From an uncultured virus (IMG/VR IMGVR_UViG_3300042400_001601) (Duplodnaviria > Heunggongvirae > Uroviricota > Caudoviricetes), in the IMG/VR virus record IMGVR_UViG_3300042400_001601: 64,000 nucleotides of DNA. One strand, given 5' to 3'. A program made the translations under genes and the position numbers. The notes under the pieces were generated by a model, which searched no databases, was not told the DNA's origin, and was given only the letters and a program-made list of their open reading frames with translations. This document shows, piece by piece, positions 59,362-63,014 of the stretch. The first letter of the stretch is position 1. The number at the start of each line of letters is the position of its first letter.

Positions 59362-59724
59362 ATGAAGATAGTTGTACCTTTAGTACAGTTCCAACAGCAA
59401 CTCAGGATATTTCATTGGCAAACCGAGAGTTACGCTCAACATAAAGCTTTAGGTAAAGCATATGAAGCCCTTGATGCCTTAATAGATGGTTTTGTTGAGA
59501 CGTTTATGGGCAAATACGGGCGCTTGAAATCGACCGAAGGCAACTATACTATTACTCTTAACAATCTAGAAGGTAATGATATTAATAAAACTATTGATGA
59601 ATTTATCACTTATCTAGAAACGTACGAGAGCGAACTTGAAGAAAGTGATACTGATCTTTTCAACATTAGAGATGAAATGAAAGGTCAATGTAACACGTTA
59701 AAGTATCTATTGACATTAAAATAA
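59362..59724 (+). CDS. Ferritin/Dps-like four-helix protein (DUF5856-like)
   Basis: FHWQT..YAQHKAL...Y...D.FVE..MG...NIRDEM...LKYLL. Confidence 0.8.
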   Translation: MKIVVPLVQFQQQLRIFHWQTESYAQHKALGKAYEALDALIDGFVETFMGKYGRLKSTEGNYTITLNNLEGNDINKTIDEFITYLETYESELEESDTDLFNIRDEMKGQCNTLKYLLTLK

Positions 59725-59773
59725 TAATTTAAGCTTGCTTTTGAGCCAAAATAGCTCAAAATGAATAGCTTAA

Positions 59774-60355
59774 ATGAAAGTTGTACAGCCAGACGCTAAA
59801 ACTAGTCTTCTTCTCAACCGTAACTACCAAGCTTTTGCTTTTTGTTCGGCTAGAGCGGCGATCCGTCATTTTATGACTGGTAAAGTAAAAGGGCTAGATG
59901 CAGAAAACAATACTCACGAATTTGATACCTGGTCCACTCCTTATGTTCAACTTCATGCAGATCAGCCCGCTCTACGTAGTGCAAGTCAAACATGGGCTAT
60001 ACCTACTGTTTTAGTTTGTACCAATCATTTCGGTTTTCACCCTCGCAAAGGAGACAACGTTTCGCTAAAAAATCTTTTTAATATCTATAAAGGTACTTGC
60101 CAGTTTTGTTTAAAGCCGATACCATTCAGTCATGCTACTAAGGACCACCTTTATCCAAAATCTAAAGGCGGTACTAATCACGATTTTAATATGGTTCTAG
60201 CATGCCGTAAATGTAATAGCGAGAAAGATAACATCTTTCCTTACTATGATATTAACGGTAACGAGGTAAAACCACGTAAGTTAATGCATTCCGGTGTGTT
60301 CATTCCAGATATCCAAGATGTTAGAGAAGAATGGAAACCTTTCCTTTATATGTAA
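59774..60355 (+). CDS. HNH endonuclease
   Basis: LLLNRNY, CQFC, DHLYPKSKGG, N.V.ACRKCN..K. Confidence 0.9.
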   Translation: MKVVQPDAKTSLLLNRNYQAFAFCSARAAIRHFMTGKVKGLDAENNTHEFDTWSTPYVQLHADQPALRSASQTWAIPTVLVCTNHFGFHPRKGDNVSLKNLFNIYKGTCQFCLKPIPFSHATKDHLYPKSKGGTNHDFNMVLACRKCNSEKDNIFPYYDINGNEVKPRKLMHSGVFIPDIQDVREEWKPFLYM

Positions 60356-60363
60356 AAAAGTGC

Positions 60364-60407
60364 TTGACTTTAAGAGAAAAAGTACCATTATATGTAAATA
60401 TTAAATA
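60364..60407 (+). promoter_or_regulatory. Putative promoter region of leader/tRNA operon
   Basis: TTGACT (60364-60369) with CATTAT (60386-60391); two TAAATA boxes (60395-60400, 60402-60407). Confidence 0.55.
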
Positions 60408-60411
60408 ACAA

Positions 60412-60498
60412 ATGATCAAATCCATAACCAGTTCAACAATTAATCCAGCACAATGCGATACATTCGCCTGGGTTCATTATGAACTGGGCAGGGTTTAA
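60412..60498 (+). CDS. Putative attenuator leader peptide (28 aa, contains all 20 amino acids)
   Basis: Manual translation MIKSITSSTINPAQCDTFAWVHYELGRV*; stop codon lies inside the antiterminator arm. Confidence 0.75.
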   Translation: MIKSITSSTINPAQCDTFAWVHYELGRV

Positions 60499-60555
60499 AG
60501 CAAATTTTCTAACGAAAAACTTTAAACCCTAGGCCTTAAAAACCTAGGGTTTTTT
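60490..60555 (+). terminator. Mutually exclusive antiterminator / intrinsic terminator (attenuator)
   Basis: AGGGTTTAAAG (60490-60500) pairs with CTTTAAACCCT (60520-60530); AAACCCTAGG (60524-60533) pairs with CCTAGGGTTT (60543-60552), T-tract to 60555. Confidence 0.85.
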
Positions 60556-60781
60556 AATGCGAGCTGCCGCTAACCAAGCAGCCAAGACGTCTTATAAGAG
60601 GCATCCAAACCGGCGAATAAAAAGCCGATAGGGGTGAGATCAATAAGTTCTTTATTAGATGAAATAGAGCGGCCCCGGACGCTCTTTAAAACAATTCGCC
60701 GGGCCTTTTTCCTGCCTGCACTGAAGTCTGGGTCCATATCCAGGAAGCAGCAATGCTCTAGGTGCAGCGTGGGACTATTTT

Positions 60782-60856
60782 GCCTCTATAGCACAGTGGT
60801 AGTGCAACAGTTTTGTAAACTGTAGGTCGTTGGTTCGAATCCGACTGGAGGCTCCA
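60782..60856 (+). tRNA. tRNA-Thr(TGT)
   Basis: Cloverleaf; ACAGT-TT-TGT-AA-ACTGT; GGTTCGAATCC; encoded CCA. Confidence 0.95.
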
Positions 60857-60871
60857 TTTTCAACGACTCGT

Positions 60872-61243
60872 TTATACAGCATTGTATGCTGTGTTGTAAT
60901 CTCGATTTTTATTTTGAAGCAATCTATATAAAACTTTGTCGTTCCCCGTTTGTTTTACTTCAGCATCATTTATATACTTATTTACAGTGTTGTAATCTTT
61001 ATTAAGCCAAGCAATAGTACCTAAATAGTATTTTACTATACCTTGAGAATCGTCGGTTTTAGCTTGGGTAGCTGCTTTATTCATCATAGATATAGCTTCT
61101 TGCGTTTTACCTTGAATAGCTAATTCTTGAGCAGCATGCCAAGTGTCTAGTGAAGGAATATTTAGCGGGTTAGTGTTACCCGTATAATTTTCGATTAACG
61201 ATGAAAGATACAAATTTACCCTTTTATCAAATTTCATATACAA
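60872..61243 (-). CDS. Hypothetical helical (TPR-like) protein antisense within the tRNA array
   Basis: 123 aa; MKFDKRVNLYLSSLIE N-terminus; TAAATA directly upstream. Confidence 0.65.
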   Translation of the reverse strand: MYMKFDKRVNLYLSSLIENYTGNTNPLNIPSLDTWHAAQELAIQGKTQEAISMMNKAATQAKTDDSQGIVKYYLGTIAWLNKDYNTVNKYINDAEVKQTGNDKVLYRLLQNKNRDYNTAYNAV

Positions 61244-61251
61244 TATTTATT

Positions 61252-61343
61252 GGAAGCGTGGGTGAGTGGATAAAAATCGCTTGTCTTGAAAACAAGAATC
61301 GGTGATGAGCCGGTCGTAGGTTCGAATCCTACCGCTTCCGCCA
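61252..61343 (+). tRNA. tRNA-Ser(TGA)
   Basis: GGAAGCG/CGCTTCC acceptor, CTTGT-CT-TGA-AA-ACAAG, long variable arm, GCCA end. Confidence 0.92.
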
Positions 61344-61348
61344 ATTTT

Positions 61349-61547
61349 GCGCGAGGGGTAACCAATAGTCGGTTCTTCAATGGGCCAGTACCCTGAGTGG
61401 GCTGAGAAATACCAAGCACAAACAGGAAACCCGTGCCGGACTAGTACGGAAGTAGGAAGAGATGCATCTCGCTCCCTACAAGTCGGGGTTGGACGAAATT
61501 GCTTGGGGCTCTAAGAAGGTAAGGTTGACAGCCTCCCTCGCGCGCCA
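61349..61547 (+). ncRNA. Unidentified structured RNA with tRNA-like acceptor stem and CCA end
   Basis: GCGCGAGGG (61349-61357) pairs with CCCTCGCGC (61535-61543), followed by GCCA; several internal stems; spaced like a tRNA between Ser and Tyr genes. Confidence 0.75.
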
Positions 61548-61552
61548 TTTTT

Positions 61553-61637
61553 GGGAGTATGGCACAGCGGCAACTGCAGGAGACTGTAAATCTCCCGCCT
61601 TCGGGCTTCATTGGTTCGAGTCCAATTGCTCCCACCA
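61553..61637 (+). tRNA. tRNA-Tyr(GTA)
   Basis: GGAGA-CT-GTA-AA-TCTCC, variable arm, ACCA end. Confidence 0.95.
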
Positions 61638-61643
61638 CTTTAA

Positions 61644-61725
61644 GCGGACGTGTCGTAATGGTAGCCGAGATGGTCTTAGAAGCCATTGCTTATGCGTGTG
61701 GGTTCGAGTCCCTCCGTCCGCACCA
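61644..61725 (+). tRNA. tRNA-Leu(TAG)
   Basis: GCGGACG/CGTCCGC acceptor, ATGGT-CT-TAG-AA-GCCAT, ACCA end. Confidence 0.92.
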
Positions 61726-61744
61726 CTTTAAAATAAATATTATT

Positions 61745-62026
61745 ATGAAAACACTAGCATTGCTTATTATTAGTTTGACTATGACCGGCTGCTACGCATC
61801 CCCGGTTATTCGTGGCCCTCGAGTAATTGTTGTTGATCCGCATCCTCGGGTAATTATTGTTGAACCAGCTCCTCGAGTAATTGTAACGAGAGAATACCCT
61901 CGTTATCCTAGTGTTTCGTGGCATATTGATGTAAATTTTGGACGGGGTCACGGTCATGGCCATGTTTACGGCCCTATTCGTGGTCATTCGAATCCTGGCA
62001 TTTGGCGTCACTATCGCCATTGGTAA
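61745..62026 (+). CDS. Small lipoprotein with PRVIV repeats and His/Gly/Arg tail
   Basis: MKTLALLIISLTMTGC lipobox-like signal; TAAATA at 61734-61739. Confidence 0.7.
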   Translation: MKTLALLIISLTMTGCYASPVIRGPRVIVVDPHPRVIIVEPAPRVIVTREYPRYPSVSWHIDVNFGRGHGHGHVYGPIRGHSNPGIWRHYRHW

Positions 62027-62029
62027 TTT

Positions 62030-62117
62030 GGAAGGATGGCTGAGCGGCCTATAGCAGAAGTTTACTAAACTTCCGAAGAGCAATCTTCCGGGGGTTCGAA
62101 TCCCTCTCCTTCCGCCA
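62030..62117 (+). tRNA. tRNA-Ser with anticodon ACT (A34)
   Basis: GGAAGGA/TCCTTCC acceptor, G discriminator, long variable arm, GAAGT-TT-ACT-AA-ACTTC. Confidence 0.88.
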
Positions 62118-62119
62118 TC

Positions 62120-62196
62120 GCGCCAGTGTCGTTGAAAGGCTAAACTACTGTTTGCAAAACAGTTACATGCAGGTTCGATTCCTGTCTGGCGCTCCA
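62120..62196 (+). tRNA. tRNA-Cys(GCA)
   Basis: GCGCCAG/CTGGCGC acceptor, U discriminator, ACTGT-TT-GCA-AA-ACAGT; weak D-arm. Confidence 0.85.
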
Positions 62197-62201
62197 TTTA
62201 T

Positions 62202-62278
62202 GGCGATTGTAGCTCAATGGTCAGAGTATTCGATTGTGATTCGAAGGGTTGCGAGTTCGAGTCTCGTCAGTCGCCCCA
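62202..62278 (+). tRNA. tRNA-His(GTG)
   Basis: Encoded G-1, C discriminator, TTCGA-TT-GTG-AT-TCGAA, CCA. Confidence 0.93.
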
Positions 62279-62316
62279 AATATTTGATTTAGAACGTATC
62301 TAAACTAAATTTTAAT

Positions 62317-62991
62317 ATGAGTTTAGTTTTTGAAAAAATACTACCTTTAGTTAATAAAATTACCGAAAAATTTAATTTGGTATCATATGAAATTACAGAA
62401 GAAGGTATTAAGGATTACGACTGGTATAATAAAATTTTTTATTCTTTTAACAAATTTAGAAGAGCTCATATAGAAGTTCTAGATCGTAGAGAACAAAACA
62501 ATATGTGGATAATGCATACCACCGTTTTTCCGCATTTAGATGATGATGCGCCTATATTTGGTTTCGATATAATTTGTACAGGTAATAAGGTGTCTGGAGT
62601 GTTTCATGATCTATCTATTACAACTAACCCTAACCATCCATTACAGGTAAACTTTAAAAAACTAGTTAGTAATTTAACTTGGAAAAGAGAAAGAGAATTA
62701 CCCGAATGGGGCAAAGCAATTTTTTCGGAAGATATGATCGCCGCAGGTGGAAGTAATACTGAACAAGAACTACAGCAAATAGTGGATGTCTGTTTAGAAA
62801 GCTTAGATGTTTATTTGAGAAACATAGGAGCTACAAATTTTCCAAGTCCAATTTCATCCAAAGAAATGCAGAATAGATATTGCAAGTATCAAAAGATGAA
62901 TCCATACCCAGTTAAGATGTTAACTAATTTTGGATTGACAGAAGAGCAGGCTCGTCAGTTTGTTGAAAAACATCTCTTTCCTGAAGTTTAA
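62317..62991 (+). CDS. Ferredoxin-dependent bilin reductase (PcyA/PcyX family)
   Basis: FRRAHIE, MH...FP, PIFGFD, FHDLS, RELPEWG..IFS, QNRYC..QK.NP. Confidence 0.88.
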   Translation: MSLVFEKILPLVNKITEKFNLVSYEITEEGIKDYDWYNKIFYSFNKFRRAHIEVLDRREQNNMWIMHTTVFPHLDDDAPIFGFDIICTGNKVSGVFHDLSITTNPNHPLQVNFKKLVSNLTWKRERELPEWGKAIFSEDMIAAGGSNTEQELQQIVDVCLESLDVYLRNIGATNFPSPISSKEMQNRYCKYQKMNPYPVKMLTNFGLTEEQARQFVEKHLFPEV

Positions 62992-63014
62992 TCCTTTTTT
63001 CTGTAAATATTGCT

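Follow-up and report, generated by a model that had tools for sequence, protein, structure and literature searches.

We found that a 28-codon open reading frame containing all 20 amino acids lies between a promoter and a tRNA array in an uncultured tailed phage. Sequence comparison and RNA folding make it reasonably likely that this one-of-each leader is part of a ribosome-mediated attenuator of the trp type, which would measure the transit time of the ribosome, would have no specificity for any single amino acid and would gate an operon of phage RNA genes. On this reading, the phage probably makes a conserved RNA and tRNAs when ribosomes slow. Judged by comparative and folding evidence only, the element is probably a conserved and well-formed ribosome-mediated attenuator with a one-of-each leader, and the original prediction from this DNA, that of an attenuator acting as a general sensor of the tRNA pool, is partly supported.

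The window analyzed here, a stretch of 64,000 nucleotides, is part of a genome represented by a single contig of 119,783 bp (36.7% G+C). The genome encodes 22 tRNAs with 21 anticodons, which are arranged in three clusters, all on the plus strand, and seven of the tRNA genes are located 3' of the leader (Table 1). A tmRNA is also encoded by the genome, which may therefore carry a wider module that keeps ribosomes running.

Table 1 Features of the putative attenuator and the downstream RNA genes in the window
Feature	Position	Strand	Basis
Promoter TTGACT-16-CATTAT	60364–60391	+	Promoter scan; hexamers conserved in relatives, with constant spacing to the ATG
Leader ORF, 28 codons, all 20 amino acids	60412–60498	+	ATG column invariant and frame open in 10/10 aligned sequences
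Segment 1, AAATCC, putative anti-antiterminator (partner, GGGTTT of segment 2)	60418–60423	+	Terminator-forced folds
Long imperfect hairpin within the leader ORF, codons 6–26	60428–60487	+	Folding compared with shuffles
Segment 2, AGGGTTTAAAG, antiterminator 5' arm, codons AGG GTT TAA	60490–60500	+	All 11 pairs invariant in 10/10 sequences
Segment 3 (60520–60530 pairs with segment 2; 60524–60533 pairs with segment 4)	60520–60533	+	Pairing and folding
Segment 4, terminator 3' arm (60543–60552), and T tract (60550–60555)	60543–60555	+	Terminator alone, -13.7 kcal/mol
Conserved RNA, ~155 nt, between terminator and tRNA-Thr	60556–60710	+	8-sequence alignment A3
tRNA array: Thr(TGT), Ser(TGA), Tyr(GTA), Leu(TAG), Ser(ACT), Cys(GCA), His(GTG)	60782–62278	+	

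The leader ORF encodes MIKSITSSTINPAQCDTFAWVHYELGRV, that is, 28 residues of 20 amino-acid types written with 26 different codons, including all three codons for Ile, and its residues 8–27 hold 18 types; our recount agreed with the original prediction in each of these figures. No residue occurs more than three times, and the composition is flattened to approximately one of each. The probability of finding 20 types in 28 residues is 4.3e-4 under uniform usage, and with the codon usage of this phage the number was reached in 10 of 200,000 draws. Among real 28-residue windows of the proteins of this genome, which hold 13.6 types on average, only 1 of 31,466 contains 20 types (P(≥18) = 0.8%). Moreover, the leader ORF is the only one with 20 types among the 855 ORFs of 20–40 residues in the 119,783-bp genome, where the runner-up has 19 types in 34 residues. 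At least 4 of the 16 small ORFs next in diversity overlap tRNA genes, and spurious ORFs arising from structured, GC-balanced RNA tend to be diverse. We therefore used shuffles preserving the leader's own composition and shuffles preserving its hairpin. Both kinds yielded about 14–15 types, and none of 5000 structure-preserving shuffles of the window leader reached 20.

Relatives of the element, all of them on uncultured phage contigs, were obtained by way of the HNH gene upstream and by two DNA patterns. The complete leader was present on 13 other contigs, giving 10 distinct peptides (Table 2), and one version (L010/L007) stood upstream of a tRNA array in a phage whose HNH protein is just 54% identical. 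The layout common to the relatives consists of a promoter, an ATG, a frame of 25–32 codons, an in-frame hairpin, the two arms, a terminator, an RNA of ~155 nt and tRNA genes. Alignment A2 contains 10 sequences and leaves out L001 (the same sequence as the window), L004 (sharing its leader with L003), L002 (truncated at 60422), L005 (carrying a deletion) and L007/L010 (found later). Within it, the ATG, AGGGTTTAA and ACTTTAAACCCT are invariant, and the interior of the ORF is highly variable, with indels; the nucleotides ATGATCAAATCCA in the region of segment 1 are conserved among the relatives whose peptides begin with MIKS.

Table 2 Leader peptides of the window and its relatives
Source	Peptide	Residues	Amino-acid types
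Window (=L001)	MIKSITSSTINPAQCDTFAWVHYELGRV	28	20
L003 (=L004)	MIKSITSSTINPVQCDTFAWVHYELGRV	28	20
L079	MIKSTTNSTINPQRSDVYAWEHCELVRV	28	18
L074	MIKSTSVEQFNPRGINTAWTYCDTSCRV	28	18
L078	MIKSTSVEQFNPRGIHTAWTCCDTR	25	18
L006	MIKSITVEQFNPRGIPTAWTYCDTR	25	18
L042	MQTISSVQKFFTGIQTPAENNDWSYCRV	28	18
L075	MQTICNITKWSTLPEQSGNVTPYANIHRV	29	18
L076 (=L080)	MITTCNISKWSTSPEQTGNVLPYAST	26	16
L010 (=L007)	MTTIWSITSKLQRRPSEAFYGNLPICDYLGLE	32	18

Conservation of the ORF and of its residue diversity in homologous loci, on which the original prediction had staked its refutation, was indeed observed. Frame 1 from the invariant ATG contains no stop in any of the 10 aligned sequences, and the remaining five frames mostly contain 1–4; in L010/L007 the three forward frames contain 0, 3 and 3 stops. 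The probability of such an open frame under shuffling is 0.13–0.22 per sequence. The peptides hold 16–20 types, so that high diversity is shared by the relatives, while the strict 20 of 20 is limited to the window's lineage. The stop codon is either a TAA inside the arm, a TAG abutting the arm or, in L010, a TAA 6 nt behind it, and a terminating ribosome would cover the antiterminator arm at every placement seen. Since two of the three frames stop in the arm anyway in most variants, once a frame reaches it, the open frame is a stronger argument than the position of the stop.

The same observations bear on an alternative in which the ORF is incidental and the transcript is an untranslated structured RNA, either a small RNA of ~155 nt with its 3' end at the terminator or a 5' leader with processing or stability hairpins. 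Small-RNA genes usually have such a layout of promoter, hairpins (three here) and terminator, at the RNA level the arms do not vary, and diverse spurious ORFs do arise from structured RNA in this genome. We nevertheless regard this alternative as unlikely, given that the frame stays open from the invariant ATG in every lineage despite heavy change and indels, that its diversity exceeds that of both composition- and structure-preserving shuffles, and that Trp and Cys are always present.

One relative, L005, has no equivalent of 60425–60549, whereby the hairpins and the terminator are lost and the same promoter and ATG lead straight into the conserved RNA and tRNAs. From this deletion, the element is therefore dispensable, and L005 is a natural version without it. 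Further searches were conducted for relatives. When 60340–60790 was compared with 50,697 phage records by blastn, nothing matched. In viral contigs, a 16-mer from the downstream RNA occurred at 30 loci, of which 5 match the region (four known contigs and the L042 contig) and the rest are due to chance; a 17-mer at the start codon occurred at 28 loci, mostly unrelated genes starting with MIKS. The first scan of viral contigs with the two arms gave L042 beside contigs already known, and later arm scans of viral contigs and genomes gave no new relatives, the matches (at least 121 in genomes, and three viral contigs of ~171 kb) being unrelated hairpins. In four sequencing runs (contigs, probably of DNA, from one study), relatives cover 60302–60424 and 60516–60680, not 60442–60512, at 88% likeness.

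The make-up of the leader peptides is kept while their sequences diverge. Only 3 of 28 residues are identical between the window and L042, and 9 of 28 between the window and L074. For the 10 peptides, structure-preserving shuffles gave means of 13.9–15.6 types, with P(≥observed) of 0/5000 for two peptides and 0.004–0.13 for the rest; L080, with a peptide identical to that of L076, was excluded from these shuffles as well as from the composition shuffles and the hairpin z-scores. When the differing sites of peptide pairs were redrawn from the amino-acid frequencies of the phage, 14.7–15.3 types were expected, compared with 18–20 observed (P = 0/20,000 to 0.04 for distant pairs and 0.20 for the close pair of the window and L079). 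The P values for the leader peptides are not independent, because the lineages are related. Trp and Cys, which account for 1.2% and 1.0% of the residues in phage proteins, are present in all eight peptides tabulated for residue content and also in that of L010, and the commonest phage residues, Leu, Lys and Gly, are reduced to 0.2–0.5 fold in the leaders.

A functional peptide of 25–32 residues with its own terminator, unrelated to the control of tRNA genes, would likewise show a conserved open frame, a promoter and a terminator, and Trp, Tyr and Cys do recur near the C-terminus in several versions. Such a peptide is, however, very improbable in view of a sequence that is almost unconstrained between lineages, a changing length, the lack of a hydrophobic stretch and a Trp residue that shifts between the hairpin arms along with its CCA complement. 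Moreover, the conserved MIKS N-terminus and RV C-terminus coincide with RNA pairing segments; Lys-Ser (AAATCC) can form pairs with GGGTTT, and the arm itself encodes Arg-Val-stop. This coincidence fits a leader of which the translation, not the product, would matter.

As for the promoter, the scan alone was not above chance (16 found in the region, compared with 18.0 expected). The predicted promoter is, however, one of three genome copies of an extended motif, TTGACTTT..GTACCATWAT, and we judge it to be real because the other two copies directly precede tRNA-Cys and tRNA-Val of the third cluster, at ~21–24 nt on their 5' side. Because these two later tRNA groups have promoter copies of their own, the element would gate the first cluster at most, and the first tRNA is itself preceded by the conserved non-tRNA RNA; the original proposal that the element switches on the tRNA genes has to be amended in both respects. 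Of the three clusters, the first alone is preceded by a leader. The leader ORF starts 21 nt 3' of the -10 hexamer in an AU-rich region without a Shine–Dalgarno motif, a feature that would also suit an untranslated RNA. However, a Shine–Dalgarno motif (GGAG/GAGG/AGGA) precedes only 3 of 122 long ORFs of the phage, compared with a background of 6.5%, and its absence is no argument against translation, since the genes of this phage are generally without it. In addition, most folds leave the first ~30 nt, with the ATG, unpaired.

The RNA following the terminator is more conserved than the leader. Alignment A3 (8 sequences) gave 28 consensus pairs, 3 of them with compensatory changes; the fold of the single sequence is not unusual (z = -0.6), and no Rfam match was found for this RNA. 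In all 8 loci with enough sequence, tRNA-Thr(TGT) comes next, with further tRNAs after it. The 3' end of the conserved RNA forms a GC hairpin with a T run in the consensus fold, whereas the single-sequence fold pairs this segment over a long range; a second terminator-like hairpin may thus lie at the end of the conserved RNA, before tRNA-Thr.

Two alternative helices form the core of the predicted switch. AGGGTTTAAAG (60490–60500) is the exact complement of CTTTAAACCCT (60520–60530), and AAACCCTAGG (60524–60533) pairs with CCTAGGGTTT (60543–60552), after which a T run extends to 60555. The helices are mutually exclusive, as 60520–60533 can pair either with 60490–60500 or with 60543–60552. Both had been proposed originally, and sequence comparison and folding bore out the perfect complementarity of the former and the overlap of the terminator with the antiterminator arm. 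The intrinsic terminator predicted at the sequence level has a 10-bp stem (-13.7 kcal/mol) and a T6 run; the terminator scan was limited to loops of 8, and the plus-strand loop is 9, so that the scan listed the stem on the minus strand only.

The fold of 60395–60565 is far more stable than those of shuffled sequences (z = -5.5; 0/200 shuffles as stable), and so is the interior of the in-frame hairpin of the window (z = -5.1; 0/300). This hairpin, at 60428–60487, replaces the smaller pause hairpin supposed earlier at 60466–60489. It is predicted in every relative, each time from a different sequence, with z-scores of -1.4 to -6.2 in 9 variants; no shuffle of 300 was as stable in 5 of the 9, and 33 of 300 were for L079. 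The consensus fold of six leaders of the MIKS type recovered only 4 pairs of the hairpin and no compensatory change, because alignment of the hypervariable interior loses the structural register, and the argument for the predicted in-frame hairpin is its stability in each single sequence.

When the terminator was forced, the GGGUUU of the arm paired with the AAAUCC of codons 3–4 at the base of the in-frame hairpin, and the element would therefore have the full four-segment design with 1:2, 2:3 and 3:4 pairings, as in trp. Thus, the geometry of the trp/his type assumed at the outset holds for the alternative helices and their near-equal energies, and it now includes the anti-antiterminator pairing of AAATCC (60418–60423) with GGGTTT, which had not been described. 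The forced antiterminator and the forced terminator differ by 0.3–3.5 kcal/mol in all 9 close variants; L006, with a contig that stops within the T tract, was not among them. In the distant L010, the antiterminator is the better of the two states, by 5.5 kcal/mol.

For a transcript ending with segment 3, the predicted probability of the 2:3 pairing was 0.94–0.98 in 9/9 variants, and a modeled ribosome footprint at the stop gave the full terminator in 9/9 variants and also in L010. The footprint was further stepped along the leader in an equilibrium model of 7 variants (L003, L006 and L080 excluded). With the A-site at the last few codons, P(terminator) was 0.79–0.96 in 7/7 variants. Modeled stalls further up raised the antiterminator; the rise was strong in the window, L078 and L079 and modest in L042, L074, L075 and L076, and stalls at codons 15–20 of the window caused no shift. 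Late stalls would thus still lead to the terminator, as had been supposed for the last four or so codons, although the stretch comprises the last 5–6 positions in the model.

The terminator stem covaries (CCCTAGG/CCTAGGG, CCCTAAG/CTTAGGG and CCCTTAAG/CTTAAGGG), with one pair switched between G-C and A-U in a compensatory way in 5 of 10 sequences; the stem of L042 is re-registered. The arms of helix 2:3 show no variation in 10/10 sequences, and covariation therefore provides no support for the 2:3 pairing; the invariance of the arms fits a three-way constraint.

Collectively, the following course of events may be proposed. RNA polymerase would start ~14 nt 5' of the ATG, and a ribosome would load on the AU-rich leader. 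An undelayed ribosome, having read all 28 codons, would sit on AGG GTT TAA and cover segment 2, so that segment 3 would pair with segment 4 and transcription would end at 60555. A late ribosome, or one stalled further up, would break the in-frame hairpin, the base of which holds the pairing of segments 1 and 2; the freed segment 2 would then pair with segment 3, no terminator would form, and read-through would proceed into the conserved RNA, as its first product, and the tRNA genes. Because the leader has about one codon per amino acid and no run of a single residue, the quantity measured would be the overall transit time, set by whatever charged tRNA or step of translation limits it and not by one amino acid. 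In this scheme, we infer the translation of the leader, the coupling of transcription and translation, termination and the signal slowing the ribosome, for which decay of the host tRNA pool, tRNA-cleaving defenses and starvation are candidates.

What such an attenuator would sense can be read in two ways. Tentatively, it may be a universal meter of translation supply, in which the long hairpin would let a ribosome held up at nearly any codon produce one and the same structural result and the tRNA operon and the conserved RNA would be switched on, on demand, by a failing host tRNA pool (through host shut-off, starvation or tRNA-cleaving nucleases). In the other reading, which we consider less likely but still a serious competitor, the same attenuator would be a feedback homeostat for the phage's own tRNA supply and not a general sensor of the host pool, in which accumulating tRNAs would let the leader be read fast and turn the array off. 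Of the 21 anticodon species of the genome, 19 have a codon in the leader, as the homeostat would require, although the leader's share of decodable codons (21/28) is near that of the whole genome (68%). As to the seven downstream tRNAs, for all of which codons had been reported in the leader, ACA, TCA, AGT, TAT, TGC and CAT stand as described, while CTG would be read by the anticodon UAG through U:G wobble only.

When synonymous codons were redrawn for an unchanged peptide, the total of decodable codons was above the null in every variant; the P values were 0.014–0.44 for decodable codons and 0.011–0.97 for anticodons covered. A match of the leader codons to the phage's own tRNAs was rejected as the primary explanation, the signal being weak once the peptide is fixed. 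Thr (2.1 fold) and Ser (1.45 fold) are the most enriched common residues of the leaders, and their tRNAs are the first two of the array in most loci. In the pooled leaders, the codon counts of which are not independent, ACA or ACG encodes Thr at 21 of 30 positions (35% in phage genes) and TCA encodes Ser at 8 of 21 (17%); all 3 Thr residues of the L010 leader are encoded by ACA. This bias, which favors the codons of the two leading tRNAs of the array, is suggestive. However, Leu and Tyr are depleted in the leaders although both belong to the first cluster. Ala occurs in all eight tabulated peptides and Phe in five, and the genome has neither tRNA-Ala nor tRNA-Phe; in L076, tRNA-Phe directly follows tRNA-Thr, yet the leader has no Phe. 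We favor the general meter of transit time, because the match to the phage's own tRNAs is weak and because the leaders contain Ala and Phe without corresponding phage tRNAs.

The trp, his, leu, thr, ilvGMEDA and pheA attenuators have a short leader ORF, pairings 1:2, 2:3 and 3:4 and an intrinsic terminator before the regulated genes, and in enterobacterial leader-peptide attenuators the stop codon is sited so that the terminating ribosome covers segment 2. By sequence and folding, the phage element resembles those of the trp/his type in its short leader ORF between promoter and regulated genes, its exclusive helices, its terminator and a stop masking the antiterminator arm. It differs from them in that the leader has no run or enrichment of regulatory codons but about one codon per amino acid, the regulated genes are RNA genes instead of those for biosynthetic enzymes, a long hairpin within the ORF separates segments 1 and 2, and the antiterminator is predicted to be favored in the growing transcript without a ribosome. 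T-box riboswitches sense tRNA charging and choose between antiterminator and terminator upstream of translation-related genes, binding the tRNA directly without a leader ORF; the phage element would make the same choice, but has a leader ORF. The Rfam models of the Trp, His, Leu and Thr leaders and of the T-box gave no match in 59500–63000 (E ≤ 1) or in 60340–60800 (E ≤ 10).

Closer parallels in sensing are found in antibiotic resistance. According to the cited accounts, read-through in bmrB-bmrCD of Bacillus subtilis needs translation of the leader and was lowered by codon optimization (PMC4191407), and the ermC leader, without amino-acid specificity, detects an overall slowing of translation (PMC2965389). 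As far as these accounts go, the phage leader would resemble both in lacking amino-acid specificity and in a leader speed that picks between stem-loops, whereas bmrB and ermC answer ribosome-targeting antibiotics and control resistance genes, ermC acts on translation, for neither do the accounts report a one-of-each composition, and tRNA genes are not under the control of either. Our literature search, with subscription journals outside its coverage, found no account of a regulatory device placed before tRNA genes, of an attenuator for phage tRNA genes or of a leader with all amino acids.

The reasons for which phages carry tRNA genes and the ways in which they use them are being actively studied, and among the roles proposed in the cited accounts are codon compensation, making up for a host pool in decay and evasion of tRNA-cleaving defenses (PMC10264068, PMC11555353, PMC11464382, PMC11726456). 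If the attenuator reading is true, phage tRNA expression would depend on how translation stands, attenuation would extend its logic from "one amino acid" to "any amino acid", and the element would be a compact, portable sensor of translation capacity.

An extended promoter motif, TTGACTTT..GTACCATWAT, occurs in three copies, at window position 60364 and at 88135 and 89571 of the single-contig phage genome (G000:C1). Since RNA genes lie downstream of every copy, the motif suggests a promoter class dedicated to the stable RNAs of the phage. Beyond the window, the third tRNA cluster contains a tmRNA gene, which was detected with RF00023 at 103.5 bits (E = 2.5e-40) and called in agreement by ARAGORN, and immediately after tRNA-Val lies a sequence that matches the Pistol ribozyme family slightly over its gathering score (39.8 versus 34.5 bits).

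Features in and around the tRNA clusters (window positions unless prefixed G000:C1; L210, second label for the same sites)
Feature	Position	Location	Basis
Conserved RNA, ~155 nt	60556-60710	From terminator toward tRNA-Thr	Alignment of 8 sequences
70-nt stretch	60711-60781	5' of tRNA-Thr	Comparison with relatives
ORF, 123 residues	60872-61243, minus strand	Between tRNA-Thr and tRNA-Ser	
GC-rich segment, ~200 nt	61344-61552	Flanked by tRNA-Ser and tRNA-Tyr	
ORF	61559-62026	Between tRNA-Leu and tRNA-Ser	
tRNA-Ser, anticodon ACT	62030-62117	Window tRNA array	
tmRNA, full-length	G000:C1:88439-88842 (L210 4440-4843)	Beyond window	Rfam RF00023, ARAGORN
Pistol ribozyme family match	G000:C1:89706-89757 (L210 5707-5758)	Beyond window	

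The RNA following the terminator is more conserved than the leader, shows three compensatory pairs among the eight aligned sequences, and matches no Rfam family. Its 3' end may be formed by a GC hairpin with a T run; alternatively, the RNA may be closed through long-range pairing of CCGGCGAAT with ATTCGCCGG.

Between this RNA and tRNA-Thr, the 70-nt stretch is missing from related phage contigs including L005 and L042, and a longer, different insert occupies its site in L004. The GC-rich segment, which may be closed by a stem (GCGCGAGGG/CCCTCGCGC) and has no match in Rfam, looks like an insertion: relatives lack it, with 63 nt in its place in L005, and contigs of two sequencing runs, probably of DNA (X1 and X3), join 61347/8 to 61548/52, skipping the intervening segment. 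The genes for tRNA-Thr and tRNA-Ser are adjacent in L042 and L074, and in the window they are separated by the minus-strand ORF, whose sole match is a faint one to a repeat family. The inner part of the other ORF, which is without a Pfam match, looks like a small lipoprotein: it has the signal-like MKTLALLIISLTMTGC, after which come PRVI repeats and a tail rich in His and Gly. In the neighboring tRNA-Ser the wobble position is occupied by A, which is unusual; this tRNA is kept in L003 and L005.

The bilin reductase gene (62317-62991) has its closest cultured match in Pelagibacter phage Mosig (33% identity). Across the whole genome, Shine-Dalgarno motifs precede only 3 of 122 long ORFs and start regions are G-poor and A/T-rich, features that give a hint about the host.
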